From Escherichia coli (GTDB lineage Bacteria > Pseudomonadota > Gammaproteobacteria > Enterobacterales > Enterobacteriaceae), in NCBI RefSeq assembly GCF_030013595.1, contig NZ_CP122768.1: 64,000 nucleotides of DNA; one strand, written 5' to 3'. The position numbers and the translations under genes were made by a program. Below the pieces are notes generated by a model. The model was not told where the DNA came from. It searched no databases and was given only the letters and a program-made list of their open reading frames with translations. Position 1 is the stretch's first letter; each line of letters starts with the position of its first letter. Below are positions 34,532 to 57,070 of the stretch, piece by piece.

Positions 34532-34546
34532 GGTAATGACTCCAAC

Positions 34547-40165: not shown

Positions 40166-40169
40166 GTGG

Positions 40170-40784
40170 TTAGCCGATTTTGTTACGTTGTGCGAATGTG
40201 TAAAGATCCATCAGTGATTTACATTCTAATTTTTCCATCAGGCGACTTTTATAAGTGCTGACAGTTTTGTTGCTGATGAACATTTTTTCCGCAATGTCAT
40301 TATTATCCTTGCCATCAAGAATATATCGCATGACACTAATTTCTTGTTTCGATAAGGAGTCGAGTTTTTGCTGGTCGGACGTTAAACTTCCAACAAACCG
40401 GTTGAGAGAGAAGGGGAAATAGCAGTAGCCATTTTTTGCAGCTTCAATAGCCGCAATGATATTGTTCATGCCTTCTTTTTTACTCACGAATCCATTAGCG
40501 CCAGCATCAGCACAATGTTTCCCGTAAAAATGGTCATTTTTAGCGGAGACGATAATAATAATTCCGCTATATTGGCGCTTCCTCAGCGTTTCTAACACCT
40601 GGATACCGTTAACTCCGGGGATATCGACATCAATGATGACGATATCAGGTTTAAGTGTTTCCACCCGCTGAACGGCACTTCCCCCTTCAGTCAACTCCGC
40701 TAAGATTTCAATATCGTTTTTGATCAATAAATTACGAATTGCTGCGATAGCAAGAGGATGGTCATCAATAATTATTGCGTTCAT
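40170..40784 (-). CDS. evgA: NarL/FixJ-family response regulator
   Basis: 204-aa ORF with REC and LuxR-type HTH. Confidence 0.95.
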   Translation of the reverse strand: MNAIIIDDHPLAIAAIRNLLIKNDIEILAELTEGGSAVQRVETLKPDIVIIDVDIPGVNGIQVLETLRKRQYSGIIIIVSAKNDHFYGKHCADAGANGFVSKKEGMNNIIAAIEAAKNGYCYFPFSLNRFVGSLTSDQQKLDSLSKQEISVMRYILDGKDNNDIAEKMFISNKTVSTYKSRLMEKLECKSLMDLYTFAQRNKIG

Positions 40785-41199
40785 AGATTATTCCCTTGGC
40801 AATGAAGCATCTCCCTTCTCCCTGTAGTAATACAGACATAAGGCATCATCTCATTTTCTCAATAAAAATAAGAAAATTTGAGCTTCCTTTAAGATAATTC
40901 GACAAGTATACCATATAAATAGTCGGCATAAATGAAATGTCAACAATAAAATCAGGGATTGTACCGATGATTTATAGTTTCACATTAGCACTATAAGTCT
41001 TCTCACTAATCCTACATGCGTAAGAATTGTATTGCAAAAGCTACGGTTTAGTCCTCTGTTGTTTTTTTTGCACCTCATTTAAATTAGGCCTCCAACGTTC
41101 CTGGGACAATGTGCAACACATGCACTGTGTTTGATATGAAGAATGAATACTCTTTTCATTCAATTCATAAATTTCATCTATGCGAAATGAGAGATAATA

Positions 41200-42363
41200 G
41201 TGGAACAGATTAATTCAAATAAAAAACATTCTAACAGAAGAAAATACTTTTCTTTATTGGCGGTAGTTTTATTTATTGCGTTTTCAGGTGCCTATGCCTA
41301 TTGGTCAATGGAATTAGAAGACATGATTAGTACAGATGATGCCTATGTCACGGGGAATGCAGATCCAATTTCTGCACAAGTTTCAGGCAGCGTCACTGTC
41401 GTTAATCATAAAGATACGAACTACGTTCGACAGGGTGACATTTTAGTCTCACTGGATAAGACTGATGCCACTATCGCACTCAATAAAGCTAAAAATAATC
41501 TGGCAAATATTGTTCGGCAAACGAATAAACTGTACTTACAGGATAAACAATACAGTGCCGAAGTCGCTTCAGCACGTATTCAGTATCAACAATCTTTAGA
41601 AGATTATAACCGTCGTGTGCCTTTAGCGAAGCAGGGGGTTATTTCAAAAGAAACGCTGGAGCATACCAAAGATACGTTAATAAGTAGCAAAGCGGCATTG
41701 AATGCCGCTATCCAGGCTTATAAAGCGAATAAAGCTTTAGTAATGAACACACCATTAAACCGTCAGCCACAAGTCGTTGAAGCTGCGGATGCAACCAAAG
41801 AAGCCTGGTTGGCGCTTAAACGTACGGATATTAAGAGTCCGGTTACCGGCTATATTGCCCAGCGAAGTGTTCAGGTCGGCGAAACAGTGAGTCCCGGACA
41901 ATCGTTAATGGCTGTCGTACCGGCACGTCAAATGTGGGTTAATGCTAACTTTAAAGAAACACAACTCACGGATGTACGGATTGGTCAATCGGTCAATATT
42001 ATCAGCGATCTTTATGGTGAAAATGTTGTGTTTCATGGTCGGGTGACAGGGATCAATATGGGAACCGGCAATGCGTTCTCCTTATTACCTGCACAAAATG
42101 CGACAGGGAACTGGATCAAAATCGTTCAGCGTGTACCGGTTGAAGTTTCTCTTGATCCAAAAGAACTCATGGAACATCCCTTACGTATTGGTTTATCGAT
42201 GACAGCAACTATTGATACGAAGAACGAAGACATTGCCGAGATGCCTGAGCTGGCTTCAACCGTGACGTCCATGCCTGCTTATACCAGTAAGGCTTTAGTT
42301 ATCGATACCAGTCCGATAGAAAAAGAAATTAGCAACATTATTTCGCATAATGGACAACTTTAA
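41200..42363 (+). CDS. emrK: multidrug efflux membrane fusion protein
   Basis: 387-aa ORF, GTG start, HlyD-family. Confidence 0.9.
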   Translation: MEQINSNKKHSNRRKYFSLLAVVLFIAFSGAYAYWSMELEDMISTDDAYVTGNADPISAQVSGSVTVVNHKDTNYVRQGDILVSLDKTDATIALNKAKNNLANIVRQTNKLYLQDKQYSAEVASARIQYQQSLEDYNRRVPLAKQGVISKETLEHTKDTLISSKAALNAAIQAYKANKALVMNTPLNRQPQVVEAADATKEAWLALKRTDIKSPVTGYIAQRSVQVGETVSPGQSLMAVVPARQMWVNANFKETQLTDVRIGQSVNIISDLYGENVVFHGRVTGINMGTGNAFSLLPAQNATGNWIKIVQRVPVEVSLDPKELMEHPLRIGLSMTATIDTKNEDIAEMPELASTVTSMPAYTSKALVIDTSPIEKEISNIISHNGQL

Positions 42364-43901
42364 TGGCAATCACTAAATCAACTCCGGCACCATTAACCGG
42401 TGGGACGTTATGGTGCGTCACTATTGCATTGTCATTAGCGACGTTTATGCAAATGTTGGATTCCACTATTTCTAACGTCGCAATACCGACAATATCTGGC
42501 TTTCTGGGAGCATCAACAGACGAAGGCACCTGGGTTATCACTTCGTTTGGCGTAGCAAATGCCATTGCGATCCCTGTTACCGGCAGGCTGGCACAAAGAA
42601 TAGGCGAATTAAGATTATTTTTACTTTCAGTCACTTTTTTTTCGCTGTCTTCCTTAATGTGTAGCCTATCGACCAATCTTGATGTGCTGATATTTTTTAG
42701 AGTCGTTCAGGGGTTAATGGCGGGGCCGTTAATTCCACTGTCACAGAGTTTATTATTAAGGAATTATCCGCCAGAAAAAAGAACATTTGCTTTGGCATTA
42801 TGGTCAATGACCGTAATTATCGCTCCGATATGTGGGCCGATATTGGGCGGCTATATTTGCGATAACTTTAGCTGGGGTTGGATATTTTTAATCAATGTCC
42901 CTATGGGGATTATCGTCCTGACATTATGCTTAACCTTACTTAAAGGAAGAGAAACTGAGACTTCACCGGTCAAAATGAATCTACCAGGACTGACCCTGTT
43001 AGTGCTCGGTGTTGGTGGCTTGCAAATTATGCTCGATAAAGGGCGCGATCTGGATTGGTTCAACTCGAGTACAATAATAATACTAACAGTAGTGTCAGTT
43101 ATTTCTCTGATCTCTTTAGTCATTTGGGAGTCGACCTCAGAGAATCCGATTCTTGACCTCAGTTTGTTTAAGTCCCGTAATTTCACCATTGGTATTGTGA
43201 GTATCACATGCGCGTATTTATTTTACTCTGGGGCAATAGTCCTTATGCCGCAATTACTCCAGGAAACGATGGGGTATAATGCGATATGGGCCGGACTTGC
43301 CTATGCGCCCATCGGCATCATGCCGCTATTAATATCACCTTTGATAGGACGTTATGGCAACAAAATTGATATGCGGTTATTGGTGACATTTAGTTTTTTA
43401 ATGTATGCGGTTTGCTATTACTGGCGTTCTGTGACATTTATGCCAACGATTGATTTTACAGGCATCATTTTGCCACAGTTTTTCCAGGGATTCGCCGTTG
43501 CCTGTTTCTTTTTACCCTTAACAACGATTTCGTTTTCAGGGTTGCCAGATAATAAATTTGCCAATGCCTCGAGTATGAGTAATTTTTTTCGTACCTTGTC
43601 AGGATCAGTTGGTACGTCGTTGACAATGACGCTGTGGGGACGACGCGAATCGTTACACCATAGTCAGTTGACAGCAACCATCGATCAATTTAACCCCGCG
43701 TTTAATTCATCGTCACAAATTATGGATAAATACTATGGTTCGCTTTCAGGAGTTCTTAATGAAATTAATAGTGAAATAACCCAGCAGTCACTTTCTATTT
43801 CTGCAAATGAGATTTTCCGTATGGCGGCTATTGCTTTTATCTTACTTACGGTTTTGGTTTGGTTTGCGAAACCGCCGTTTACAGCGAAAGGCGTTGGGTG
43901 A
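42363..43901 (+). CDS. emrY: MFS multidrug efflux pump (14-TM DHA2 family)
   Basis: 512-aa ORF; ATG overlaps emrK stop (TAATG). Confidence 0.95.
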   Translation: MAITKSTPAPLTGGTLWCVTIALSLATFMQMLDSTISNVAIPTISGFLGASTDEGTWVITSFGVANAIAIPVTGRLAQRIGELRLFLLSVTFFSLSSLMCSLSTNLDVLIFFRVVQGLMAGPLIPLSQSLLLRNYPPEKRTFALALWSMTVIIAPICGPILGGYICDNFSWGWIFLINVPMGIIVLTLCLTLLKGRETETSPVKMNLPGLTLLVLGVGGLQIMLDKGRDLDWFNSSTIIILTVVSVISLISLVIWESTSENPILDLSLFKSRNFTIGIVSITCAYLFYSGAIVLMPQLLQETMGYNAIWAGLAYAPIGIMPLLISPLIGRYGNKIDMRLLVTFSFLMYAVCYYWRSVTFMPTIDFTGIILPQFFQGFAVACFFLPLTTISFSGLPDNKFANASSMSNFFRTLSGSVGTSLTMTLWGRRESLHHSQLTATIDQFNPAFNSSSQIMDKYYGSLSGVLNEINSEITQQSLSISANEIFRMAAIAFILLTVLVWFAKPPFTAKGVG

Positions 43902-44008
43902 TGGTAAAAGCAGGGGGTTATAGCGGGTAAGACCGGGGATCTTAAGTCTGCGCCATCGGCAGCATCGCTCACCCAGGGAAAGGATGGCGATGCTGCATTG
44001 AAAATTAA

Positions 44009-45337
44009 TTAGCGGCCTTTTGCCAGATATTGCTCCATCTCTTCTTCCGGCACCATTCCACCTCCCGTCGCCCACACCAGATGAGTGGCATTACGCAGTT
44101 GTTCTGCGCTGAAACCGTGCATCTGTTGGTAACTTACTGATGCGCACACGCGCTGAGGCCCGGCCATACCCGCCAGTGCCGAAGGTTCAAGACGAATACC
44201 TTCTTCCTGCGCCAGCCAGCCAAGCATGTCATACATGGTTTGATCGCTAAGGGTATAGAAGCCATCCAGTAGACGCTCCATTGCCCGCCCGACAAAGCCT
44301 GATGCGCGACCAACTGCAAGGCCATCCGCTGCGGTAAGGTTGTCGATACCAATATCCTGAACAGAAATCTGATCGTGTAATCCTGTATGGACGCCTAACA
44401 GCATACAAGGGGAGTGCGTTGGTTCGGCAAAAAAGCAGTGAACATGATCGCCAAATGCCAGTTTAAGCCCGAATGCGACGCCACCAGGACCACCGCCAAC
44501 ACCACACGGCAGATAGACAAACAGAGGGTTATCAGCATCGACAATACGACCTTGCTCGGCAAATTGCGCTTTAAGACGCTGGCCTGCGACGGAATACCCA
44601 AGGAACAACGTGCGGGAATTCTCGTCATCAATAAAGAAACAGTTCGGGTCAGACTGCGCTGCTTTACGTCCTTCCTCGACTGCAACACCATAATCTTGCT
44701 CATATTCCACGACCGTAACGCCATGGCTGCGCAGTTTCGCTTTTTTCCATGCCCGGGCATCAGAAGACATATGTACTGTCACCTTAAAGCCAATGCGGGC
44801 GCTCATAATGCCGATTGATAACCCCAGATTTCCGGTTGAGCCCACAGCAATGCTGTATTGGCTAAAGAACTGTTTAAACTCCGGAGAAAGCAGTTTGCTG
44901 TAGTCATCTTCAGGCGTCAGCAACCCCGCTTCCAGAGCCAGTTTTTCTGCATGTGCCAGGACTTCATAAATCCCGCCGCGTGCTTTTATGGAGCCGGAAA
45001 TGGGCAAATGGCTATCTTTTTTCAGTAGCAGTTGCCCGCTGATCGGTTGTTGATATTCCTTTTCCAGCCGTTTTTGCATAGCCGGAATGGCAACCAGTTC
45101 TGATTCAATAATCCCCCCAGTCGCAGCAGTTTCAGGAAATGCTTTTGCCAGATAGGGTGCAAAACGGGATAAGCGCGCATGGGCGTCCTGAACATCCTGT
45201 TCGGTCAGGCCAACATAAGGTAAACCTTCAGCCAATGAGGTCGTGCCAGGATTAAACCAGGTGGTTTCTTTAAGAGCAACCAGATCCTTTACCAACGGAT
45301 ACTGGGCGATGAGCGAGTTCATTTTAGCGTTTTCCAT
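44009..45337 (-). CDS. dsdA: D-serine ammonia-lyase (dehydratase)
   Basis: 442-aa PLP-dependent ORF (..SGSIKARGG..). Confidence 0.95.
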
Positions 45338-45354
45338 AGTACGTCTCTTTGCGC

Positions 45355-45590
45355 TTAGATGATAAATGACAGCAGGAATGTGCCCGCCAGAGCGACGACT
45401 GAAGCGATAAATGTCGCGGTCGTATAGTATTTAAATGTTTCATTGAGCGTAGCGCCGCAATATTGCTTCACCAGCCAGAAAAGCGAGTCCGTAACGATCG
45501 TGCAGCCAATCGCACCTGAACCGATAGCAATCGCAATAATTTCCGGGCTGATGTCGGGATACAGCGGCAGCACAATGATCCATATTTATA
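45355..45590 (-). pseudogene. dsdX: 3' remnant of dsdX (GntP-family D-serine permease), truncated by the csc insertion
   Basis: Only a C-terminal hydrophobic stretch (...SPEIIAIAIGSGAIGCTIVTDSLFWLVKQY...TFLLSFII) remains immediately upstream of dsdA; no N-terminal part and no dsdC; upstream boundary approximate. Confidence 0.7.
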
Positions 45591-45815
45591 TTTTCTTCTC
45601 CAGATTGGCGATGCCAGTTGGCATGTTTTACCTACTTGTCTACATGGTTACTCGTTGGCGAGAACAGAGGCGGAATTGGGTACAATTGTCCGGGAATTAT
45701 TGTTATTTTTTATTGTATTGCCGTGTCGGGTGATAGGGCGTCGAGAATATCGTTGGATCTCGCCAGTGACGTCTGTTTCTGCTACAGTGCCCGTTTTACG
45801 GCAAACGGCTTGGGT

Positions 45816-46811
45816 ATGGCTTCATTAAAGGATGTCGCACGCCTGGCGGGAGTGTCGATGATGACAGTCTCCCGGGTGATGCATAATGCAGAATCTGTGC
45901 GTCCTGCAACGCGTAACCGCGTATTGCAGGCAATCCAGACCCTGAATTATGTTCCTGATCTTTCCGCCCGTAAGATGCGCGCTCAAGGACGTAAGCCGTC
46001 GACTCTCGCCGTGCTGGCGCAGGACACGGCCACCACTCCTTTCTCTGTTGATATTCTGCTTGCCATTGAGCAAACCGCCAGCGAGTTTGGCTGGAATAGT
46101 TTTTTAATCAATATTTTTTCTGAAGATGACGCTGCCCGCGCGGCACGTCAGCTGCTTGCCCACCGTCCGGATGGCATTATCTATACTACAATGGGGCTGC
46201 GACATATCACGCTGCCTGAGTCTCTGTATGGTGAAAATATTGTATTGGCGAACTGTGTGGCGGATGACCCAGCGTTACCCAGTTATATCCCTGATGATTA
46301 CACTGCACAATATGAATCAACACAGCATTTGCTCGCGGCGGGCTATCGTCAACCGTTATGCTTCTGGCTACCGGAAAGTGCGTTGGCAACAGGGTATCGT
46401 CGGCAGGGATTTGAGCAGGCCTGGCGTGATGCTGGACGAGATCTGGCTGAGGTGAAACAATTTCACATGGCAACAGGTGATGATCACTACACCGATCTCG
46501 CAAGTTTACTCAATGCCCACTTCAAATCGGGCAAACCAGATTTTGATGTTCTGATATGTGGTAACGATCGCGCAGCCTTTGTGGCTTATCAGGTTCTTTT
46601 GGCGAAGGGGGTACGTATCCCGAAGGATGTCGCCGTAATGGGCTTTGATAATCTGGTTGGCGTCGGGCATCTGTTTTTACCGCCGCTGACCACAATTCAG
46701 CTTCCACATGACATTATCGGGCGGGAAGCTGCATTGCATATTATTGAAGGTCGTGAAGGGGGAAGAGTGACGCGGATCCCTTGCCCGCTGTTGATCCGTT
46801 GTTCCACCTGA
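45816..46811 (+). CDS. cscR: LacI-family sucrose operon repressor
   Basis: ORF 45618-46811; start refined to ATG 45816 (MASLKDVARLAGVSMMTVSRV..., 331 aa); LacI-type HTH plus periplasmic-binding-protein fold. Confidence 0.85.
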   Translation: MASLKDVARLAGVSMMTVSRVMHNAESVRPATRNRVLQAIQTLNYVPDLSARKMRAQGRKPSTLAVLAQDTATTPFSVDILLAIEQTASEFGWNSFLINIFSEDDAARAARQLLAHRPDGIIYTTMGLRHITLPESLYGENIVLANCVADDPALPSYIPDDYTAQYESTQHLLAAGYRQPLCFWLPESALATGYRRQGFEQAWRDAGRDLAEVKQFHMATGDDHYTDLASLLNAHFKSGKPDFDVLICGNDRAAFVAYQVLLAKGVRIPKDVAVMGFDNLVGVGHLFLPPLTTIQLPHDIIGREAALHIIEGREGGRVTRIPCPLLIRCST

Positions 46812-46818
46812 TATTATG

Positions 46819-48252
46819 TTAACCCAGTTGCCAGAGTGCTCCATGTTGCAGCACAGCCACTCCGTGGGAGGCATAGAGCGACAGTTCCCGTTCTTCTGGC
46901 TGCGGATATATTCGGCTACTCATCACCGCCTCCCCGTCGTTAATAAATACTTCCACGGATGATGTATCGATAAATATCCTTAGGGCGAGCATGTCACCCT
47001 GCGGGAGGGGAATACTACGGTAGCCATCTAAATTCTCGTGTGGGTAATACCGCCACAAAACAAGTCGCTCAGATTGGTTATCAATATACAGCCGCATTCC
47101 AGCGCCGAGCTGTAATCCGTAATGTTCGGCATCACTGTTCTTCAGCGCCCACTGCAACTGAATCTCAACTGCTTGCGCGTTTTCCTGCAAAACATATTTA
47201 TTGCTGATTGTGCGGGGAGAGATAGATTGATGCTGCTGGCGTAACGACTCAGCTTCGTGTACCGGGCGTTGTAGGAGTTTGCCATTGCTCTCTGATAGCT
47301 CGCGCGCCAGCGTCATGCAGCCTGCCCAGCCTTCACGTTTTGAGGGCATTGGCGATTCCCACATATCCATCCAGCCGATAACAATACGCCGACCATCCTT
47401 CGCTACAAAGCTTTGTGGTGCATAAAAGTCATGCCCGTTATCAAGTTCAGTAAAATGCCCGGATTGTGCAAAAAGTCGTCCTGGCGACCACATTCCGGGT
47501 ATTACGCCACTTTGAAAGCGATTTCGATAACTGTATCCCTCGGCATTCATTCCCTGCGGGGAAAACATCAGATAATGCTGATCGCCAAGGCTGAAAAAGT
47601 CCGGACATTCCCACATATAGCTTTCACCCGCATCAGCGTGGGCCAGTACGCGATCGAAAGTCCATTCACGCAATGAACTGCCGCGATAAAGCAGGATCTG
47701 CCCCGTGTTGCCTGGGTCTTTCGCCCCGACTACCATCCACCATGTGTCGGCTTCACGCCACACTTTAGGATCGCGGAAGTGCATGATGCCTTCTGGTGGA
47801 GTGAGGATCACACCCTGTTTCTCGAAATGAATACCATCCCGACTGGTAGCCAGACATTGTACTTCGCGAATTGCATCGTCATTACCTGCACCATCGAGCC
47901 AGACGTGTCCGGTGTAGATAAGTGAGAGGACACCATTGTCATCGACAGCACTACCTGAAAAACACCCGTCTTTGTCATTCTCGTCTCCTGGCGCTAGCGC
48001 AATAGGCTCATGCTGCCAGTGGATCATATCGTCGCTGGTGGCATGTCCCCAGTGCATTGGCCCCCAGTGTTCGCTCATCGGGTGATGTTGATAAAACGCG
48101 TGATAACGATCGTTAAACCAGATCAGGCCGTTTGGATCGTTCATCCACCCGGCAGGAGGCGCGAGGTGAAAATGGGGATAGAAAGTGTTACCTCGGCGCT
48201 CGTGAAGTTTTGCTAGTGCGTTTTGCGCCGCATGCAATCGAGATTGCGTCAT
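46819..48252 (-). CDS. cscA: sucrose-6-phosphate hydrolase/invertase (GH32)
   Basis: ORF 46819-48261 (start 48252 or 48261); GH32 motifs WMNDPNG and RDP present. Confidence 0.9.
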   Translation of the reverse strand: MTQSRLHAAQNALAKLHERRGNTFYPHFHLAPPAGWMNDPNGLIWFNDRYHAFYQHHPMSEHWGPMHWGHATSDDMIHWQHEPIALAPGDENDKDGCFSGSAVDDNGVLSLIYTGHVWLDGAGNDDAIREVQCLATSRDGIHFEKQGVILTPPEGIMHFRDPKVWREADTWWMVVGAKDPGNTGQILLYRGSSLREWTFDRVLAHADAGESYMWECPDFFSLGDQHYLMFSPQGMNAEGYSYRNRFQSGVIPGMWSPGRLFAQSGHFTELDNGHDFYAPQSFVAKDGRRIVIGWMDMWESPMPSKREGWAGCMTLARELSESNGKLLQRPVHEAESLRQQHQSISPRTISNKYVLQENAQAVEIQLQWALKNSDAEHYGLQLGAGMRLYIDNQSERLVLWRYYPHENLDGYRSIPLPQGDMLALRIFIDTSSVEVFINDGEAVMSSRIYPQPEERELSLYASHGVAVLQHGALWQLG

Positions 48253-48286
48253 TTTAATCATCCTGGTTAAGCAAATTTGGTGAATT

Positions 48287-48298
48287 GTTAACGTTAAC
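48287..48298. promoter_or_regulatory. putative CscR operator (palindrome GTTAACGTTAAC), copy 1
   Basis: Perfect 12-bp palindrome in the divergent cscA/cscK promoter region. Confidence 0.4.
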
Positions 48299-48350
48299 TT
48301 TTATAAAAATAAAGTCCCTTACTTTCATAAATGCGATGAATATCACAAAT

Positions 48351-48362
48351 GTTAACGTTAAC
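48351..48362. promoter_or_regulatory. putative CscR operator (palindrome GTTAACGTTAAC), copy 2
   Basis: Identical 12-bp palindrome 52 bp from copy 1. Confidence 0.4.
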
Positions 48363-48467
48363 TATGACGTTTTGTGATCGAATATGCATGTTTTAGTAAA
48401 TCCATGACGATTTTGCGAAAAAGAGGTTTATCACTATGCGTAAGTCAGATGAATTTAAGGGAAAAAA

Positions 48468-49382
48468 ATGTCAGCCAAAGTATGGGTTTTAGGGGATGCG
48501 GTCGTAGATCTCTTGCCAGAATCAGACGGGCGGCTACTGCCTTGTCCTGGCGGCGCGCCAGCTAACGTTGCGGTGGGAATCGCCAGATTAGGCGGAACAA
48601 GTGGGTTTATAGGTCGGGTCGGTGATGATCCTTTTGGTGCGTTAATGCAAAGAACGCTGCTAACTGAGGGTGTCGATATCACGTATCTGAAGCAAGATGA
48701 ATGGCACCGGACATCCACGGTGCTTGTCGATCTGAATGATCAAGGAGAACGTTCATTTACGTTTATGGTCCGCCCCAGTGCCGATCTTTTTTTAGAGACG
48801 ACAGACTTGCCCTGCTGGCGACATGGCGAATGGTTACATCTCTGTTCAATTGCGTTGTCTGCCGAGCCTTCGCGTACCAGCGCATTTACTGCGATGACGG
48901 CGATCCGGCATGCCGGAGGTTTTGTCAGCTTCGATCCCAATATTCGTGAAGATCTATGGCAAGACGAGCATTTGCTCCGCTTGTGTTTGCGGCAGGCGCT
49001 ACAACTGGCGGATGTCGTCAAGCTCTCGGAAGAAGAATGGCGACTTATCAGTGGAAAAACACAGAACGATCGGGATATATGCGCGCTGGCAAAAGAGTAT
49101 GAGATCGCCATGCTGTTGGTGACTAAAGGTGCAGAAGGGGTGGTGGTCTGTTATCGAGGACAAGTTCACCATTTTGCTGGAATGTCTGTGAATTGTGTCG
49201 ATAGTACTGGGGCGGGAGATGCGTTCGTTGCCGGGTTACTCACAGGTCTGTCCTCTACGGGGTTATCTACAGATGAGAGAGAAATGCGACGAATTATTGA
49301 TCTTGCTCAACGTTGCGGAGCGCTTGCAGTAACGGCGAAAGGGGCGATGACAGCGCTGCCATGTCGACAAGAACTGGAATAG
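48468..49382 (+). CDS. cscK: fructokinase (PfkB/ribokinase family)
   Basis: 304-aa ORF with GAGDAF motif. Confidence 0.9.
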   Translation: MSAKVWVLGDAVVDLLPESDGRLLPCPGGAPANVAVGIARLGGTSGFIGRVGDDPFGALMQRTLLTEGVDITYLKQDEWHRTSTVLVDLNDQGERSFTFMVRPSADLFLETTDLPCWRHGEWLHLCSIALSAEPSRTSAFTAMTAIRHAGGFVSFDPNIREDLWQDEHLLRLCLRQALQLADVVKLSEEEWRLISGKTQNDRDICALAKEYEIAMLLVTKGAEGVVVCYRGQVHHFAGMSVNCVDSTGAGDAFVAGLLTGLSSTGLSTDEREMRRIIDLAQRCGALAVTAKGAMTALPCRQELE

Positions 49383-49453
49383 TGAGAATTAAACGGCGAA
49401 GTCGCTCTTATCTCTAAATAGGACGTGAATTTTTTAACGACAGGCAGGTAATT

Positions 49454-50701
49454 ATGGCACTGAATATTCCATTCAGAAATGCGTACTATCGTTTGGCATC
49501 CAGTTACTCATTTCTCTTTTTTATTTCCTGGTCGCTGTGGTGGTCGTTATACGCTATTTGGCTGAAAGGACATCTAGGATTAACAGGGACGGAATTAGGT
49601 ACACTTTATTCGGTCAACCAGTTTACCAGCATTCTATTTATGATGTTCTACGGCATCGTTCAGGATAAACTCGGTCTGAAGAAACCGCTCATCTGGTGTA
49701 TGAGTTTCATTCTGGTCTTGACCGGACCGTTTATGATTTACGTTTATGAACCGTTACTGCAAAGCAATTTTTCTGTAGGTCTAATTCTGGGGGCGCTCTT
49801 TTTTGGCCTGGGGTATCTGGCGGGATGCGGTTTGCTTGACAGCTTCACCGAAAAAATGGCGCGAAATTTTCATTTCGAATATGGAACAGCGCGCGCCTGG
49901 GGATCTTTTGGCTATGCTATTGGCGCGTTCTTTGCCGGTATATTTTTTAGTATCAGTCCCCATATCAACTTCTGGTTGGTCTCGCTATTTGGCGCTGTAT
50001 TTATGATGATCAACATGCGTTTTAAAGATAAGGATCACCAGTGCATAGCGGCGGATGCGGGAGGGGTAAAAAAAGAGGATTTTATCGCAGTTTTCAAGGA
50101 TCGAAACTTCTGGGTTTTCGTCATATTTATTGTGGGGACGTGGTCTTTCTATAACATTTTTGATCAACAACTCTTTCCTGTCTTTTATGCAGGTTTATTC
50201 GAATCACACGATGTAGGAACGCGCCTGTATGGTTATCTCAACTCATTCCAGGTGGTACTCGAAGCGCTGTGCATGGCGATTATTCCTTTCTTTGTGAATC
50301 GGGTAGGGCCAAAAAATGCATTACTTATCGGTGTTGTGATTATGGCGTTGCGTATCCTTTCCTGCGCGTTGTTCGTTAACCCCTGGATTATTTCATTAGT
50401 GAAGCTGTTACATGCCATTGAGGTTCCACTTTGTGTCATATCCGTCTTCAAATACAGCGTGGCAAACTTTGATAAGCGCCTGTCGTCGACGATCTTTCTG
50501 ATTGGTTTTCAAATTGCCAGTTCGCTTGGGATTGTGCTGCTTTCAACGCCGACTGGGATACTCTTTGACCACGCAGGCTACCAGACAGTTTTCTTCGCAA
50601 TTTCGGGTATTGTCTGCCTGATGTTGCTATTTGGCATTTTCTTCCTGAGTAAAAAACGCGAGCAAATAGTTATGGAAACGCCTGTACCTTCAGCAATATA
50701 G
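49454..50701 (+). CDS. cscB: sucrose:H+ symporter (MFS, LacY-like)
   Basis: 415-aa 12-TM ORF. Confidence 0.9.
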   Translation: MALNIPFRNAYYRLASSYSFLFFISWSLWWSLYAIWLKGHLGLTGTELGTLYSVNQFTSILFMMFYGIVQDKLGLKKPLIWCMSFILVLTGPFMIYVYEPLLQSNFSVGLILGALFFGLGYLAGCGLLDSFTEKMARNFHFEYGTARAWGSFGYAIGAFFAGIFFSISPHINFWLVSLFGAVFMMINMRFKDKDHQCIAADAGGVKKEDFIAVFKDRNFWVFVIFIVGTWSFYNIFDQQLFPVFYAGLFESHDVGTRLYGYLNSFQVVLEALCMAIIPFFVNRVGPKNALLIGVVIMALRILSCALFVNPWIISLVKLLHAIEVPLCVISVFKYSVANFDKRLSSTIFLIGFQIASSLGIVLLSTPTGILFDHAGYQTVFFAISGIVCLMLLFGIFFLSKKREQIVMETPVPSAI

Positions 50702-51143
50702 ACGTAAACTTTTTCCGGTTGTTGTCGATATCTCCATATCCCTCAACCGGAAAATAATAATACAAAAATGCTTAGCCCAACTAATAATCACCTAATCCAA
50801 ACGCCTCATTCATGTTCTGGTACAGTCGCTCAAATGTACTCCGGATACGCGGTTCGCTGATTTCCAGGACATTGTCGTCATTCAGCGACCTGTCCCGAGT
50901 ATCACGGGCCTGCGAATTCATCAAGGAATGCATTGCAGAGTGAAGTATCGAGTCACGCCATATTTCGCTATCAGGATTCTGTATGATGGTTACATCGCCC
51001 GGCCCAGGGCTGTTTAGTCATCAGCGCTTTCTGACAGTGCTGAGATTTCAACCTGTTGCAGTAAAAATGAGTAGATATAGGGCAAGTGTGCTGCCAAACC
51101 CATCTTTTACGGGGTGAAGGTAGATTTGGTTTGAAGGGTATCT

Positions 51144-51158
51144 GGTGTCCCCTGCAGA
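51144..51158. other. putative prophage att core (attR): 15-nt identity to the 3' end of tRNA-Arg argW
   Basis: Minus strand reads CTGCAGGGGACACCA, matching the argW 3' terminus as recalled, without the rest of the tRNA; lies about 70 bp from the torI-like gene. Confidence 0.45.
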
Positions 51159-51230
51159 CATCTACTTGAGGCGGCAGGGGATTGATTGGAATGGTGTTTT
51201 TTAGATGTGAAAAATATTTTACCCGCTATT

Positions 51231-51431
51231 TTACCCATTGGCGCGGCTTAAGAGCTTATTTTTGAATTCACAATGGTCACGATATAACCATCTTGCTCGC
51301 CCGTGGATAACTTTGGCTTTTGGCAGGTCGCCGGACTTAATCCGGTCATAGATGAAGGTTTTACCGAATCCAGTATCGGCCATGATGAATTTCAAATCAA
51401 CCAGTGAATCAGGCTGTAGTTCGTGTTGCAT
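51231..51431 (-). CDS. torI: AlpA/Xis-family excisionase (recombination directionality factor), TorI-like
   Basis: 66-aa ORF at the prophage edge next to the att core; size and position match KplE1 TorI; identity from recall. Confidence 0.6.
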   Translation of the reverse strand: MQHELQPDSLVDLKFIMADTGFGKTFIYDRIKSGDLPKAKVIHGRARWLYRDHCEFKNKLLSRANG

Positions 51432-51562
51432 GAGTGCTATCTCCGAATAGGGAATCGAACCTGCAAATCAGGCAATAAAAAACCGCCATCAGGCGGCTTG
51501 GTGTTCTTTCAGTTCTTCAATTCGAATATTGGTTACATTGTTTTAATATATGAATAAATAAA

Positions 51563-51775
51563 TTAGCTTTTTTCGTTGCCTTCGCGTTCTTTATTAATTT
51601 TAACAAACTCGTTTTTACCACGCTCTCCAAATGCGTCTTTAGAGTCGTTGTATCCGCAATCGCAGCACACATAATCACCAGACCATCCACGCATTGTTTT
51701 TTCTTTTGCAATATTTCCAGAACCGCATTTTGGACAAGACATATCACTACCTCCAAAGCATGAGTGAGATGACAA
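51563..51775 (-). CDS. small Cys-rich zinc-finger protein (lambda Ea8.5 position)
   Basis: 70-aa ORF with CPKCGSG...CCDCGYN zinc-ribbon-like motifs. Confidence 0.4.
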   Translation of the reverse strand: MSSHSCFGGSDMSCPKCGSGNIAKEKTMRGWSGDYVCCDCGYNDSKDAFGERGKNEFVKINKEREGNEKS

Positions 51776-51838
51776 CGTAACATTGATTGGAGATTAACAA
51801 TAGATTGCTGATGTAAAAGATATGTATAAGCTTCGCTT

Positions 51839-52393
51839 TCAAAGTGGAGGCTCTGGTAGCGGCATCCAGTGTGACGGCTCACATACCACCTCAACACCGT
51901 TCATGTAAAAGAATTGAAATAACCCTTTACCTTTGTGAAACCCTACCATCTGCTCTTTTGTGTCTGAACAATAAACCAAAACATCTTCTTCGTTTGGCAT
52001 CCACTCACTACAGCTTATCCAACCATCTGGAATTACCGGAGAGTTGCCCGACATCTCATTCAACTTGTAAGTCTGGCTTACAGGTTTGGCTTCCAGTTCT
52101 GCAATGCGCTTACCTCCATCCGCGATTACTCCCTCGTAATATTCACGCTGCTCGTTGAGTTTTGATTTTGCTTCCTCAAGCTCAACTCTCAGCTTCCCTA
52201 CCGTTAGCGCAATATCCTCGTTCTCCTGGTCACGGCGTTTGATGTATTGCTGGTTTCTTTCCCGTTCATCCAGCAGTTCCAGCACAATCGATGGTGTTAC
52301 CAATTCATGGAAAAGGTCTGCGTCAAATCCCCAGTCGTCATGCATTGCCTGCTCTGCCGCTTCACGCAGTGCCTGAGAGTTAATTTCGCTCAC
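51839..52393 (-). CDS. Ead/Ea22-like early protein (DUF551-type)
   Basis: 184-aa ORF at the Ea22 position of the lambda early-left operon. Confidence 0.55.
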   Translation of the reverse strand: MSEINSQALREAAEQAMHDDWGFDADLFHELVTPSIVLELLDERERNQQYIKRRDQENEDIALTVGKLRVELEEAKSKLNEQREYYEGVIADGGKRIAELEAKPVSQTYKLNEMSGNSPVIPDGWISCSEWMPNEEDVLVYCSDTKEQMVGFHKGKGLFQFFYMNGVEVVCEPSHWMPLPEPPL

Positions 52394-52611
52394 TTCGAAC
52401 CTCTCTGTTTACTGATAAGTTCCAGATCCTCCTGGCAACTTGCACAAGTCCGACAACCCTGAACGGCCAAGCGTCTTCGTTCATCTATCGGATCGCCACA
52501 CTCACAACAATGAGTGGCAGATATAGCCTGGTGGTTCAGGCGGCGCATTTTTATTGCTGTGTTGCGCTGTAATTCTTCAATTTCTGATGCTGAATCAATG
52601 ATGTCTGCCAT
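52390..52611 (-). CDS. TraR/DksA-family C4 zinc-finger protein
   Basis: 73-aa ORF with CxxC-17-CxxC motif (CCECGDPIDERRRLAVQGCRTCASC). Confidence 0.55.
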   Translation of the reverse strand: MADIIDSASEIEELQRNTAIKMRRLNHQAISATHCCECGDPIDERRRLAVQGCRTCASCQEDLELISKQRGSK

Positions 52612-52709
52612 CTTTCATTAATCCCTGAATTGTTGGTTAATACGCTTGAGGGTGAATGCGAATAATAAAAAAGGAGCCTGTAGCTCCATGATGATTTTGT
52701 TTTTCATGC

Positions 52710-52991
52710 TCACCGTTCCTTAAAGACGCCGTTTAACATGCCGATCGCCAGGCTTAAATGAGTCGGTGTGAATCCCATCAGCGTTACCGTTTCGCGGTGC
52801 TTCTTCAGTACGCTACGGCAAATGTCATCGACGTTTTTATCCGGAAACTGCTGTCTGGCTTTTTTGATTTCATAATTAGCCTGACGGGCAATACTGCGAA
52901 GGGCGTTTTCTTGCTGAGGTGTCATTGAACAAGTCCCATGTCGGCAAGCATAAGCACACAGAATATGAAGCCCGCTGCCAGAAAAATGCAT
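52710..52991 (-). CDS. hypothetical phage early protein
   Basis: 93-aa ORF, co-oriented in the early-left operon; start uncertain. Confidence 0.35.
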   Translation of the reverse strand: MHFSGSGLHILCAYACRHGTCSMTPQQENALRSIARQANYEIKKARQQFPDKNVDDICRSVLKKHRETVTLMGFTPTHLSLAIGMLNGVFKER

Positions 52992-53001
52992 TCAGTGGTT
53001 G

Positions 53002-53193
53002 TCATACCTGGTCTCTCTCATCTGCTTCTGCTTTCGCCACCATCATTTCCAGCTTTTGTGAAAGGGATGTGGCTAACGTATGAAATTCTTCGTCTGTTTC
53101 TACTGGTATTGGCACAAACCTGACTCCAATTTGAGCGAGGCTATGTGCCATCTCGATACTCGTTCTTAACTCAACGGGAGATGCTTTGTGCAT
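53002..53193 (-). CDS. hypothetical phage early protein (lambda orf63 position)
   Basis: 63-aa ORF. Confidence 0.35.
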   Translation of the reverse strand: MHKASPVELRTSIEMAHSLAQIGVRFVPIPVETDEEFHTLATSLSQKLEMMVAKAEADERDQV

Positions 53194-53354
53194 ACAGCCC
53201 CCCGTTTATTATTTATCTCCTCAGCCAGCCGCTGGGCTTTCAGTGGATTTTGGATAACAGAAAGGCCGGGAAATACCCAGCCTCGCTTTGTAACGGAGTA
53301 GACGAAAGTGATCGCGCCTACCCGGATATTATCGTGAGGATGCGTCATCGCCAT
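53166..53354 (-). CDS. hypothetical phage early protein (lambda orf60a position)
   Basis: 62-aa ORF overlapping exo stop. Confidence 0.3.
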
Positions 53355-54025
53355 TGCTCCCCAAATACAAAACCAATTTCAGCCAGTGCCTCGTCCATTT
53401 TTTCGATGAACTCCGGCACCATCTCGTCAAAACTCGCCATGTACTTTTCATCCCGCTCAACCACGACATAATGCAGTCCTTCACGCTTCATACGCGGGTC
53501 ATAGTTGGCAAAGTACCAGGCATCTTTTCGCGTCACCCACATGCTGTACTGCACCTGGGCCATGTAAGCCGACTTTATGGCCTCGAAACCACCGAGCCGG
53601 AACTTCATGAAATCCCGGGAGGTAAACGGGCATTTCAGCTCAAGGCCATTGCCGTCACTGCATAAACCATCGGGAGAGCAGGCGGTGCGCATACTTTCGT
53701 CGCGATAGATGATCGGGGATTCAGTAACATTCACGCCGGAAGTGAATTCAAACAGGGTTCTGGCGTCGTTCTCGTACTGTTTTCCCCAGGCCAGCGCCTT
53801 AGCATTAACTTCCGGAGCCACACCGGTGCAAACCTCAGCCAGCAGGGTGTGGAAGTAGGACATTTTCATGTCAGGCCACTTCTTTCCTGAGCGGGGCTTT
53901 GCTATCACGTTGTGAACTTCTGAAGCGGTGATGACGCCGAGCCGTAATTTGTGCCACGCATCATCCCCCTGTTCGACAGCTCTCACGTCGATCCCGGTAC
54001 GCTGCAGGATAATGTCCGGTGTCAT
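53345..54025 (-). CDS. exo: lambda-type 5'-3' exonuclease (Red-alpha)
   Basis: 226-aa ORF, YqaJ-type recombinase exonuclease; followed by bet and gam. Confidence 0.9.
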
Positions 54026-54807
54026 GCAGCCACCTTCTGTTCAGAGGCTTTCTGTTTCAGGAATCCAAGAGCTTTCACTGCTTCGGCCTGTGTCAGTTCT
54101 GACGATGCGCGAATGTCGCGGCGAAATATCTGGGAACAGAGCGGCAATAAGTCGTCATCCCATGTTTTATCCAGGGCGATCAGCAGAGTGTTAATCTCCT
54201 GCATGGTTTCATCGTTAACCGGAGTGATGTCGCGTTCCGGCTGGCGTTCTGCAGTGTGTGCAGTATTTTCGACAATGCGCTCGGCTTCATCCTTGTCATA
54301 GATACCAGCAAATCCGAAGGCCAGACGGGCACACTGAATCATGGCTTTATGCCGTAACATCCGTTTGGGATGCGACTGCCACGCCCCCGTGATTTCTCTG
54401 CCTTCGCGAGTTTTGAATGGTTCGCGGCGGCATTCATCCATCCATTCGGTAACGCAGATCGGATGATTACGGTCCTTGCGGTAAATCCGGCATGTACAGG
54501 ATTCATTGTCCTGCTCAAAGTCCATGCCATCAAACTGCTGGTTTTCATTGATGATGCGGGACCAGCCATCAACGCCCACCACCGGAACGATGCCGTTCTG
54601 CTTATCAGGGAAGGCGTAAATTTCTTTCGTCCACGGATTAAGGCCGTACTGGTTGGCGACGATCAACAATGCGATGAACTGCGCATCGCTGGCATCACCT
54701 TTAAATGCCGTCTGGCGAAGAGTGGTGATCAGTTCCTGTGGGTCGACAGAATCCATGCCGACACGTTCAGCCAGCTTCCCTGCCAGCGTTGCGAGTGCTG
54801 TACTCAT
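54022..54807 (-). CDS. bet: single-strand annealing protein Bet (Red-beta)
   Basis: 261-aa ORF; overlaps exo start as in lambda. Confidence 0.9.
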
Positions 54808-54812
54808 CCGTT

Positions 54813-55109
54813 TTATACCTCTGAATCAATATCAACCTGGTGGTGAGCAATGGTTTCAACCATGTACCGGATGTGTTCTGCCATGCGCTCCTGAAACTCA
54901 ACATCGTCATCAAACGCACGGGTAATGGCTTTTTTGCTGGCCCCGTGGCGTTGCAAATGATCGATGCATAGCGATTCAAACAGGTGCTGGGGCAGGCCTT
55001 TTTCCATGTCGTCTGCCAGTTCTGCCTCTTTCTCTTCACGAGCGATCTGCTGGTAGTGACGCGCCCAGCTCTGAGCCTCAAGACGATCCTGAATGTAATA
55101 AGCGTTCAT
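54813..55109 (-). CDS. gam: host-nuclease (RecBCD) inhibitor Gam (short form)
   Basis: 98-aa [24 protein letters not shown]... matching lambda GamS as recalled. Confidence 0.9.
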
Positions 55110-55184
55110 GGCTGAACTCCTGAAAATGGCTGTGAAAATAGCGCCCGCGAAATGCCAGGCTGATTAGGAAAACAGGAAAGGGGG

Positions 55185-55328
55185 TTAGTGAATGCTTTTG
55201 CTTGATCTCAGTTTCAGCATTAATATCCATTTTTTATAAGCGTCGACGGCTTCACGAAACATCTTTTCATCGCCAATAAAAGTGGCGATAGTGAATTTAG
55301 TCTGGATAGCCATAAGTGTTTGATCCAT
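55185..55328 (-). CDS. kil: host-killing protein Kil
   Basis: 47-aa [12 protein letters not shown]... within ORF 55185-55454; overlaps cIII by 32 nt as in lambda. Confidence 0.8.
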
Positions 55329-55461
55329 TTTTTGGGACTCCTGGCTGATTAAGTATGTCGATAAGGCGTTTCCATCCGTCACGTAATTTACGGGTGATTC
55401 GTTCAAGTAAAGATTCGGAAGGGCAGCCAGCAACAGGCCACCCTGCAATGGCATATTGCAT
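55297..55461 (-). CDS. cIII: cIII (FtsH protease inhibitor)
   Basis: Manual translation gives [54 protein letters not shown] (54 aa); below ORF-track cutoff. Confidence 0.85.
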   Translation of the reverse strand: MQYAIAGWPVAGCPSESLLERITRKLRDGWKRLIDILNQPGVPKNGSNTYGYPD

Positions 55462-55533
55462 GGTGTGCTCCTTATTTATACATAACGAAAAACGCCTCGA
55501 GTGAAGCGTTATTGGTATGCGGTAAAGCCGCGC

Positions 55534-55845
55534 TTAGGCGGCTGATGTTTCTTCTTTCAGGCTTTCGAGATATTTACGTGGGTCGTCGTAACATTGGCAT
55601 TCGCTGTACCAATCCACCCAGCGATCAGTAAGCCCCACCTCTGATAAATCTTCATCGGTAAGGCTCTCATCCCACATCTCAAGGCCGTTAGCATTGCAGT
55701 AATCAGGCTTGATGTTGTTGTCATACTGAAAGGCGTCATAATCAGCCAGTGCGTCCATCAGGCGAACACCCTCTTCAACACTTGCCACTTCTACAATGAA
55801 CGGCTTCATAGGTACTTGCGGGATATGCCAGACACGTAATTTCAT
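55534..55845 (-). CDS. hypothetical acidic protein (lambda ea10 position)
   Basis: 103-aa ORF, strongly acidic, Trp/Cys-containing. Confidence 0.5.
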   Translation of the reverse strand: MKLRVWHIPQVPMKPFIVEVASVEEGVRLMDALADYDAFQYDNNIKPDYCNANGLEMWDESLTDEDLSEVGLTDRWVDWYSECQCYDDPRKYLESLKEETSAA

Positions 55846-55989
55846 ATTTCCTCCGTCAAAAAAATGCCCTCACACTGGAGGGCAAAGAAGATTTCCAATA
55901 ATCAGAACAAGTCGGCTCCTGTTTAGTTACGAGCGACATTGCTCCGTGTATTCACTCGTTGGAATGAATACACAGTGCTTATTCGCAGC

Positions 55990-56316
55990 CTACATAATCA
56001 TTCCGGTTATTATTACCATTTCAATATCGCTATCTTTCATAATGATTGGAGTTGAGTTATCAACTTTACTTTTACTCCATTTTCCTGCATCAGTTTTTAC
56101 CGCTCCACAATAAGAAAGCCAATCATCATCACAATGTTCTGGATCACTAATTCTGACAAGAACACGTGATAGTGCTTTTTCGATACTTTCATCACAATTA
56201 GCATTTGTGTAATTGCCGTGAGACAATTTCAAATCGTTAACTTCATCTTCATTGGCATCAAAAATATAGATTTCAGTCGACTCTGGAACATTTTCATAAA
56301 CCATTAAAACTTTCAT
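55990..56316 (-). CDS. hypothetical protein, AT-rich moron-like gene
   Basis: ORF 55990-56397; likely start ATG 56316 (MKVLMVYENVPE...) after GGGG RBS; low GC relative to flanks. Confidence 0.45.
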   Translation of the reverse strand: MKVLMVYENVPESTEIYIFDANEDEVNDLKLSHGNYTNANCDESIEKALSRVLVRISDPEHCDDDWLSYCGAVKTDAGKWSKSKVDNSTPIIMKDSDIEMVIITGMIM

Positions 56317-56356
56317 TTTTACCCCATATTGTTTATGCCAAAAATAAAGGCCACCA

Positions 56357-56557
56357 TTAGGCAGCCTTGTTGTTCTGTTTACCAAGTTCTCTGGCAATCA
56401 TTGCCGTCGTTCGTATTGCCCATTTATCGACATATTTCCCATCTTCCATTACAGGAAACATTTCTTCAGGCTTAACCATGCATTCCGATTGCAGCTTGCA
56501 TCCATTGCATCGTTTGAATTGTCCACACCATTGATTTGTATCAATAGTCGTAGTCAT
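56357..56557 (-). CDS. ral: Ral-like small Cys-rich protein (restriction alleviation), tentative
   Basis: 66-aa ORF with CGQFKRCNGC motif at the ral position and size; identity from recall. Confidence 0.5.
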   Translation of the reverse strand: MTTTIDTNQWCGQFKRCNGCKLQSECMVKPEEMFPVMEDGKYVDKWAIRTTAMIARELGKQNNKAA

Positions 56558-56627
56558 ACGGATAGTCCTGGTATTGTTCCATCACATCCTGAGGATGCTC
56601 TTCGAACTCTTCAAATTCTTCTTCCAT
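56541..56627 (-). CDS. possible 28-aa acidic leader peptide (MEEEFEEFEEHPQDVMEQYQDYPYDYDY)
   Basis: Short ORF with strong GAGGTGA RBS 6 nt upstream of ATG; its stop overlaps the ral-like start. Confidence 0.25.
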   Translation of the reverse strand: MEEEFEEFEEHPQDVMEQYQDYPYDYDY

Positions 56628-56685
56628 ATCTCACCTCAAATAAGTGGTTTGCTGCCTAATTTCATTTTCTGGCGACCAACACAAG

Positions 56686-56958: not shown

Positions 56959-57056
56959 AGATTCCTCCCGAATAAACTTTGGCGATGCAATCTCGAAGCT
57001 CCTCCTGAGACGGTTGCTTCGGCATTGCATCCCACAGCTTATATGGTTGGGTGATC

Positions 57057-57070
57057 TGGCTTTTCAGCCA
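57057..57070 (-). promoter_or_regulatory. putative nutL boxB hairpin
   Basis: Transcript-sense UGGCUGAAAAGCCA stem-loop between the putative pL and N start. Confidence 0.35.

Follow-up and report, generated by a model that had tools for sequence, protein, structure and literature searches.

The closest described relative of the region studied here is the csc regulon of Escherichia coli EC3132, W and O157:H7 EDL933 (cscB, cscK, cscA and cscR; z3623-z3626), and the replacement of dsd by csc genes at the argW hotspot has been described before (PMC4366372, PMC7486766, PMC3032704). Our region is part of a 64 kb stretch of one E. coli genome, called the window throughout, and shares with this regulon the gene content and orientations, the two 12-bp operators, the DUF4942 fragment and the position beside argW. 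With the O157:H7 locus it also shares the truncation point of dsdX, the query for this junction being fully covered there. Only allelic detail differs, as CscK is a protein of 304 aa here and not of 307 aa. Identity over the region amounts to 99.0-99.4% with the best-ranked other genomes and reaches 99.9% with two pig isolates, and argW is occupied by a lambdoid prophage here, but by a P4-like element or by no element in relatives. Compared with the dsdCXA locus, intact in K-12, UPEC and NMEC, our region is collinear and 98% identical from the emrKY flank through dsdA and the dsdX-dsdA spacer to the 218 nt of the dsdX 3' end, whereas 2,368 bp of that locus (K-12) are missing here and 5,570 bp are found instead. 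The PTS-dependent scr regulon, found in Klebsiella, on Salmonella plasmids and in some E. coli, also serves sucrose catabolism and likewise includes a hydrolase of family GH32, a fructokinase and a repressor of the LacI family. The csc regulon differs from it by a LacY-type proton symporter and by the hydrolysis of unphosphorylated sucrose; neither a PTS EII nor a porin gene was found at the csc locus here in the ORF list and a profile search. We assign the region, with a probability of about 0.93, to the standard csc haplotype known from the argW-dsdA region in E. coli, together with the phenotypes predicted from it. That csc replaces dsdC and most of dsdX is an ordinary and long-described arrangement in E. 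coli and as such already known.

The junctions were located by a blastn comparison of positions 40001-56000 of the window with K-12. On the left side emrKY, dsdA and the 3' end of dsdX match K-12 through position 45572, where the homology ends, which places the left junction at 45572|45573 and within the 45.57-45.62 kb that a sequence-only reading of the same DNA had predicted. On the right side the homology restarts at a 15-nt repeat of the argW 3' end (junction 51142|51143), and the csc-specific block between both points (45573-51142) takes the place of dsdC, of the control region between dsdC and dsdX and of 1,120 nt of dsdX (1,338 nt in full). As the alignments span kilobases at 98-100% identity, chance can be dismissed as an explanation. 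The sequence-only reading had correctly seen csc in the place of dsdC and of a part of dsdX, which amounts to its 5' 84%, but it let the csc locus end at 50701 with the stop codon of cscB, while the block actually reaches 441 bp further.

Left of the block dsdA (44009-45337, minus strand) is intact, as had been claimed. With 808.5 bits its full-length ORF of 442 aa exceeds the cutoff of 368 for TIGR02035, the equivalog of D-serine ammonia-lyase, it is identical to K-12 at 1304 of 1329 nt with six amino-acid substitutions, and the PLP lysine K118 of DsdA is present in SGSIKARGG. From dsdX only the last 218 nt, about 72 codons, are left (45355-45572, minus strand), in line with the earlier claim that just its 3' end remains. 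This remnant is identical to the 3' end of K-12 dsdX at 214 of the 218 positions and matches positions 375-445 of the 445 in the DsdX profile, it has lost both start codon and promoter, and the corresponding piece in relatives is labelled by PGAP as a partial permease with missing N-terminus. The segment 45355-45590, whose dsdX origin had been marked for checking, proved to be dsdX-derived over 45355-45572. No dsdC or dsdX-5' sequence was detected in window positions 40001-56000 by blastn against K-12, so that the reported absence of dsdC at the locus holds for this range.

The block begins with 243 bp 5' of cscR (45573-45815, plus strand), where the K-12 alignment is lost, followed by cscR (45816-46811, plus strand) for a LacI-family sucrose repressor of 331 aa. 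Both CscR domains are full length (LacI HTH at residues 3-48, Peripla_BP_1 at 61-329), and three substitutions separate it from the CscR annotated in strain 1296KP; a longer ORF starting at 45618 is a mere in-frame upstream extension of cscR. The following cscA (46819-48252, minus strand) encodes a cytoplasmic invertase of family GH32 with 477 aa, which scores 477 bits on TIGR01322 (cutoff 356) and shows the GH32 N and C domains as well as the catalytic motifs WMNDPNG (residue 36), RDP (160) and ECP (215). The fructokinase gene cscK of the PfkB family (48468-49382, plus strand) passes the cutoff of the NF006957 equivalog (450) with 507.7 bits and covers profile positions 2-302 of 302, with the GAGD motif at residue 248. 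Compared with the 307-aa form there is an additional T at 49380, which costs the protein no more than its three C-terminal residues, and the 304-aa form is annotated in two relatives too. The sucrose:H+ symporter gene cscB (49454-50701, plus strand) encodes 415 aa of the LacY family; residues 5-410 match PF01306 with 641.7 bits, and TIGR00882 gives 594.5 bits (cutoff 220). While dsdA, cscA, cscK and cscB were called by curated family cutoffs, CscR was called by its domains and its near-identity to annotated CscR. All four csc genes are full length at the positions read from the ORFs, confirming the intact cscR-cscA-cscK-cscB locus of the sequence-only reading, and their order and orientation, with cscA alone on the minus strand, are annotated identically in relatives. 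Each of the four proteins carries a few lineage-specific substitutions.

For the spacer between cscA and cscK, PMC11251922 (citing Jahreis 2002) mentions a pair of 12-bp inverted repeats as putative CscR operators and a Crp site adjoining the -35. Our repeat search in the divergent cscA/cscKB control region (48253-48467, no strand assigned) gave two 12-bp palindromes GTTAACGTTAAC at 48287-48298 and 48351-48362, which fit the CscR operators as described in PMC11251922, and a CRP-like half site at 48373-48388. A simple promoter scan found no consensus sigma-70 site in the region against 9.5 expected in shuffles, so that the positions of the promoters are taken from the literature. The hits of a terminator scan were mostly located within coding regions, and an Rfam search gave no RNA family in 45-51 kb. 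The control region is uninterrupted here, whereas in the nearest relatives IS4 is inserted in it.

Downstream of cscB a spacer of 441 bp (50702-51142, no strand assigned), delimited by genome search as part of the csc haplotype, contains the 5' fragment of a DUF4942 gene (50781-50933, minus strand), which matches positions 18-62 of the 190 in the DUF4942 profile with 26.1 bits against a cutoff of 25 and belongs to a gene type that we take to be one of CP4/P4-like islands. The spacer query 50690-51142, including the last 12 nt of cscB, matches 2,644 genomes only, with the full query adjacent to cscB in all but one of 40 sampled rows, and it has no match in dsdCXA-type genomes. The right boundary of the block is formed by the argW 3'-end repeat (51143-51157, plus strand), the attR core, which is an exact copy of K-12 pawZ and occurs only once in the window; in the prophage-free genome AP025214 the tRNA-Arg gene itself has these 15 nt at its 3' end. 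Here a lambdoid prophage has inserted into argW, which is therefore represented by the attR core repeat, the gene itself being located beyond the prophage and outside the window. The excisionase gene torI at the attR end of this prophage (51231-51431, minus strand, 97.6% identity to the K-12 torI region), which is also annotated in relatives, is context and does not belong to csc.

To count the arrangement we used a 300-nt query centred on the left junction and a coverage of at least 80%, and found it in 2,687 of 5,426 complete E. coli genomes. O157:H7 and O111:H8 are among them, and O157:H7 strain 9234 and O111:H8 cover the query to 100%. The statement that this architecture is known from O157:H7-type and other csc-positive strains is thereby supported, and PMC4366372, PMC7486766 and PMC3032704 agree with it. 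Window positions 44000-51500 are held to at least 80% in one place by 2,645 of the 5,426 genomes. A match to the dsdC/dsdX-5' segment was found in 2,698 of them, in some at two places (the highest number being two), and both counts sum to 5,385, which is consistent with csc and dsdCXA being alternative states without proving it. As other configurations are on record, with dsdC retained or both loci complete in a few strains (PMC11251922), the mutual exclusivity of csc and dsd is a strong tendency and not a rule. The two closest complete genomes share the junction, and their identity is 100% across 24.5 kb of backbone and 99.9% across the csc region. A chimeric query made of a lineage marker and K-12 dsdC/dsdX-5' found only one place in each of these two genomes, showing that neither chromosome has a copy of dsdC/dsdX-5'.

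With respect to D-serine, the consequences of the replacement have been studied in detail, including D-serine toxicity, uptake by CycA and SstT and the switching on again of dsdA through deletions across cscR (PMC4366372, PMC7486766). D-serine that enters via CycA and SstT while dsdA is uninduced is toxic (PMC7486766), and for EHEC and E. coli W, whose architecture is as here, it was shown that D-serine is not used and is inhibitory (PMC7486766, PMC3032704), W having lost D-serine use (PMC3032704). In our strain the intact dsdA would be expressed at a basal level only, because the DsdC activator and the inducible promoter are lost, and D-serine imported by CycA and SstT would not be detoxified, so that the strain should fail to use D-serine and be inhibited by it. 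The predicted loss of D-serine uptake is right for the DsdX route but went too far, as entry persists through CycA and SstT (PMC7486766). A latent route back may exist, since cscA and dsdA are codirectional with cscR alone between them and deletions removing cscR could place dsdA under the cscA promoter; such a reactivation has been demonstrated experimentally in EHEC (PMC4366372, PMC7486766).

The confirmed protein families and the literature together suggest the following steps of sucrose use: CscB would bring in sucrose with a proton, CscA would cleave it to glucose and fructose in the cytoplasm, CscK would phosphorylate the fructose, and CscR would repress the divergent cscA and cscKB promoters via the two putative GTTAACGTTAAC operators, with CRP adding catabolite control. 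From the repression by CscR and the control by CRP it follows that csc-only strains should usually be slow on sucrose. Among csc-positive, scr-negative isolates none was rapidly sucrose-positive, 23/29 grew slowly or very slowly and 5/29 did not grow (PMC11251922). The label 'sucrose-positive' given to this strain is too strong for a csc-only strain, which is usually slow (PMC11251922). An scr locus may be present in this genome beyond the 64 kb of the window.

How the block came to its place has more than one conceivable answer. A gene fragment that consists of a 3' end only arises by truncation alone, and we therefore infer that the csc state is derived from an intact dsdCXA state. That csc would be the cargo of the adjacent prophage, brought in by specialised transduction or lysogenic conversion, and not a chromosomal haplotype, is suggested at first sight by its position directly outside the prophage attR, by four GenBank 'phage' records with csc at one end and by the report of csc in four coliphage genomes (PMC11251922). 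However, the csc block is located on the chromosomal side of the attR core, an identical block is found in a genome without a prophage at argW, where dsdA, the dsdX remnant, cscRAKB, the DUF4942 fragment, argW and yfdC follow each other consecutively, and the block is also present beside an unrelated P4-like element at argW. Moreover, the four 'phage' records are PHASTER-predicted regions cut from draft genomes and not sequenced virions; ON470594 has one end within the dsdX remnant and the other where the integrase gene ends, and its limit is a prediction boundary overshooting the prophage. We regard the phage origin as effectively refuted. A plasmid origin was rejected as well, since full-length matches in a plasmid collection came solely from records of 0.37-4.9 Mb, which are taken to be mislabelled chromosomes or large chromosome fragments, and true plasmids gave only GH32 matches of about 73% identity, taken to be scr-type genes. 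For the chromosomal csc haplotype itself it is conceivable, though we consider it rather doubtful, that it represents what erosion has left of one ancient integrative island at argW, a state which would have arisen by one integration and deletion early in the history of E. coli and then been spread or lost by homologous recombination through the flanks, with no need for recurrent insertion at a hotspot. Pointing in this direction are the dsdX breakpoint, which is identical in about 2,700 genomes although the spacer differs by up to about 7% between lineages, and the end of the csc-specific block exactly at the tRNA 3' end with the DUF4942 5' fragment beside the tRNA.

Architecture, junctions, gene integrity and population frequency were observed directly, whereas the phenotypes are predictions, which could fail even if the haplotype is assigned correctly. 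A second intact dsdCXA locus elsewhere in the genome would keep D-serine catabolism and leave the truncated copy without phenotypic effect. According to the title of Moritz and Welch (2006), two copies are reportedly common in K1 strains, and beyond the 64 kb seen of this genome there is room for one. The genomes with two places for the dsdC/dsdX-5' query and the few strains with both loci complete (PMC11251922) point the same way, but neither the range 40001-56000 nor the two closest complete genomes, searched for a second dsdC or dsdX as the sequence-only reading had suggested, contain a further copy, and the counts of 2,687 and 2,698 among 5,426 genomes leave scant room for frequent co-occurrence, making a second locus very improbable. 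Less far-fetched, although still unlikely, is that csc is silent and the strain sucrose-negative despite its four intact ORFs. Four of the five non-growing csc-positive, scr-negative isolates had no visible csc defect (PMC11251922), so that intact ORFs are no guarantee of a sucrose phenotype, and the few lineage-specific substitutions in CscR, CscA, CscK and CscB might also matter. Against this stand the full length of all four proteins with their catalytic and family motifs kept, the control region with both putative operators, which is uninterrupted here and not hit by IS4 as in the nearest relatives, and the slow growth of 23/29 comparable isolates (PMC11251922).

The value of the finding is a practical one for strain typing and phenotype prediction and does not represent new biology. 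The region types the strain as csc/truncated-dsd haplotype, typically found in phylogroups B1, D and E and in most carriers of the LEE pathogenicity island; this phylogroup distribution has been reported together with the slow growth on sucrose (PMC11251922). Slow use of sucrose is predicted for the strain, while D-serine would not be catabolised and would inhibit its growth, and the literature ties such D-serine sensitivity to a niche restriction to the gut and not the urinary tract. As a latent escape, deletions removing cscR can turn dsdA on again, at the cost of sucrose use.

Aligned to the K-12 reference MG1655 (region 2,464,000-2,486,000), positions 40001-45572 are collinear with evgA, emrKY, dsdA and the 3′ end of dsdX, with no gaps and 98.0% identity. 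This identity ends between 45572 and 45573 and homology restarts at 51143, precisely at TGGTGTCCCCTGCAG (51143-51157), which in K-12 is pawZ, the repeat of the 3′ end of the tRNA-Arg gene argW that forms attR of prophage CPS-53/KplE1; torI (51231-51431) follows this 15-nt repeat. The segment absent from K-12, the csc block, comprises 45573-51142 (5,570 bp). Its K-12 counterpart of 2,368 bp consists of dsdC, the control region between dsdC and dsdX, and 1,120 nt of dsdX. Both this alignment and the profile searches confirm the sequence-only reading, which had proposed that csc genes replace dsdC and the 5′ part of dsdX and leave dsdA intact. The junction alignment to K-12 that it suggested as a check showed 45355-45572 to be derived from dsdX, with 218 of 1,338 nt retained and 214 of these 218 identical. 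The extent it had given, 45355-50701, does contain the csc locus, but 50701 is only the stop codon of cscB and the haplotype-specific block is 441 bp longer, reaching 51142.

Features were called by ORF listing and family profile searches. From left to right, emrK (41200-42363, + strand) and emrY (42363-43901, +), both named after the annotation of relatives, are followed by dsdA (44009-45337, −), which encodes 442 aa and scores 808.5 bits against the D-serine ammonia-lyase equivalog (cutoff 368), and by the dsdX remnant (45355-45572, −), a fragment of 72 codons whose match to the DsdX profile (445 positions) is confined to positions 375-445. The csc genes themselves are cscR (45816-46811, +) with a LacI HTH and a sugar-binding domain, cscA (46819-48252, −; GH32, 477 bits, cutoff 356), cscK (48468-49382, +; fructokinase equivalog, 507.7 bits, cutoff 450) and cscB (49454-50701, +; LacY-type symporter, 641.7 bits). 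Catalytic or cofactor motifs were found in DsdA (K118), CscA (WMNDPNG, RDP and ECP) and CscK (GAGD). A 397-aa ORF starting at 45618 was rejected as a separate gene, being merely an in-frame upstream extension of cscR. Close to its 3′ end, cscK varies in length by one base (T at 49380), and the window has the version encoding 304 aa (...RQELE) instead of 307 aa (...RQELESEK). Each form is annotated in natural genomes and the short one covers the family profile fully.

The 215-bp spacer between cscA and cscK contains the perfect 12-bp palindrome GTTAACGTTAAC twice, at 48287-48298 and 48351-48362, and a CRP-like half site at 48373-48388. A simple promoter scan of the region was uninformative. These elements agree exactly with published csc features: with reference to Jahreis et al. 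2002, PMC11251922 places two inverted repeats of 12 bp in the cscA-cscK interval, interprets them as putative CscR operators on either side of the cscA promoter, and locates a Crp site beside the −35 element. Both nearest genomes, NZ_CM149870 and NZ_CM149862, carry an IS4 at this spacer or at the very beginning of cscK (window 48472-48483; 17352-18777 in L004, a record of nearest-genome DNA), an insertion that has probably cut cscKB off from its promoter in these genomes. In the window IS4 is absent from the control region, which is intact.

These two genomes, faecal isolates from UK pigs, are the only complete ones with 100% identity to the backbone at 10000-34500. Only 3 of 5,426 complete genomes reach 99% and the next-best listed ones 98.5%, and by these matches the backbone belongs to a rarely sequenced chromosomal lineage. 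Their csc region is 99.9% identical to that of the window and has the same junction, but at argW they carry a P4-like element and the window a lambdoid prophage. A chimeric query joining a 3.6-kb lineage marker to the K-12 dsdC/dsdX-5′ segment found a single place per nearest genome, the marker, and therefore no second dsdC/dsdX copy exists in these relatives. None was present either in 40001-56000, the stretch aligned to K-12, and the intact dsdC and dsdX elsewhere that had been named as evidence against the proposal were thus found in neither place. A complete IS1 (768 bp, 34532-35299) lies between yfdV and yfdE, flanked by the 9-bp target duplication AATCATGTT (34523-34531 and 35300-35308); neither the nearest genomes nor the prophage-free genome AP025214 contains it. 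Two tRNA-Val genes precede tRNA-Lys by gltX (3907-4184), as in the nearest genome; K-12 presumably has three at this position (valU, valX, valY). Two tandem tRNA-Ala(GGC) genes (6883-7073) face one annotated in the otherwise identical nearest genome (7306-7381 in its record L005), which could reflect copy number or assembly collapse.

To the right of the csc block a lambdoid prophage at argW occupies 51143-64000 and runs past the window end, its integrase end and argW lying outside. It includes the attR core and torI at its attR end, exo (53345-54025), bet/RecT (54022-54807) and a lambda cIII thermoregulator RNA (55416-55474; Rfam, 88.5 bits), and matches elsewhere indicate a cI-like repressor and O/P replication genes. 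Coverage of 51143-64000 in one place reaches 80% in none of the complete genomes, and the prophage is therefore mosaic. Four GenBank "complete phage genomes" (ON470594, ON470589, ON470608 and ON470622) have csc at one end. These records are PHASTER-predicted prophage regions excised from draft genomes, with boundaries that overshoot attR into the chromosome, and published findings of csc in coliphages are therefore most likely artefacts of annotation. ON470594 (csc part 1-6108) starts within the dsdX remnant and stops where the integrase gene ends, which reflects such an overshot boundary and not a transducing phage; csc as phage cargo was rejected. In AP025214, dsdA, the dsdX remnant, cscRAKB, the DUF4942 fragment described below, tRNA-Arg and yfdC lie directly in a row, and the window aligns to it as far as 51157, the end of the tRNA gene. 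As the block is present there without a prophage, it is chromosomal and outside the prophage.

Counting complete E. coli genomes (n = 5,426) with at least 80% of a query covered in one place, window 44000-51500 was found in 2,645, a 300-nt query centred on the left junction in 2,687, including O157:H7 and O111:H8, and the K-12 dsdC/dsdX-5′ segment in 2,698. The latter two counts sum to 5,385, a total compatible with the site having two alternative states, but exclusivity is not proven by counts alone. Essentially, csc is not plasmid-borne. It has been reported in 35-37% of isolates and in all or nearly all members of phylogroups B1, D and E, and variant csc/dsd configurations exist (PMC11251922).

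The same architecture is described for EDL933, in which the sucrose locus substitutes dsdC and part of dsdX at the argW hotspot, LEE and dsdCXA carriage being nearly exclusive (PMC4366372), and for E. coli W, in which the same insertion goes with loss of D-serine use (PMC3032704). Together with the junction in O157:H7 this agrees with the earlier statement that the arrangement is known from O157:H7-type and other csc strains, and the interpretation as a whole is supported with three corrections, concerning the block end, sucrose rate and D-serine entry. Sucrose use is expected, but slow and not classically positive, as none of the isolates with csc and without scr was rapidly positive, 23 of 29 growing slowly or very slowly and 5 of 29 not at all (PMC11251922). 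The predicted loss of regulated D-serine uptake holds insofar as dsdX is truncated, but D-serine still enters by CycA and SstT, and the system does not function when DsdC is lacking, D-serine then being toxic (PMC7486766). Deletions spanning cscR place dsdA under the promoter of cscA or of the neighbouring ORF z3622 and restore D-serine catabolism in exchange for sucrose use (PMC7486766); genes in the window are oriented in the same way, as this reactivation requires.

Replacement of dsdC and 5′ dsdX by csc is already known and very common. The 441-bp spacer between cscB and the argW repeat contains a 50-codon ORF (50781-50933, −) whose match to the DUF4942 profile (190 positions) covers positions 18-62 (26.1 bits, cutoff 25); judged by this match it is the 5′ fragment of a DUF4942 gene, probably the ORF named z3622 in EDL933. 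A query running from the final 12 nt of cscB through the spacer (50690-51142) matched only 2,644 genomes, was covered whole and adjoining cscB in all but one of 40 sampled rows, and had no dsdCXA-type genome among the matches listed; being confined to csc-type genomes, the spacer is part of the csc haplotype. Truncated genes therefore lie on both sides of the csc genes, a dsdX 3′ end on the left and a DUF4942 5′ end on the right, and since a gene reduced to its 3′ end can have arisen solely by truncation, we infer that the csc state descends from an intact dsdCXA state. The haplotype may have originated in a single ancient integration of an island plus deletion, as hinted at by the one breakpoint that its carriers share, the boundary exactly at the tRNA end and the DUF4942 fragment.
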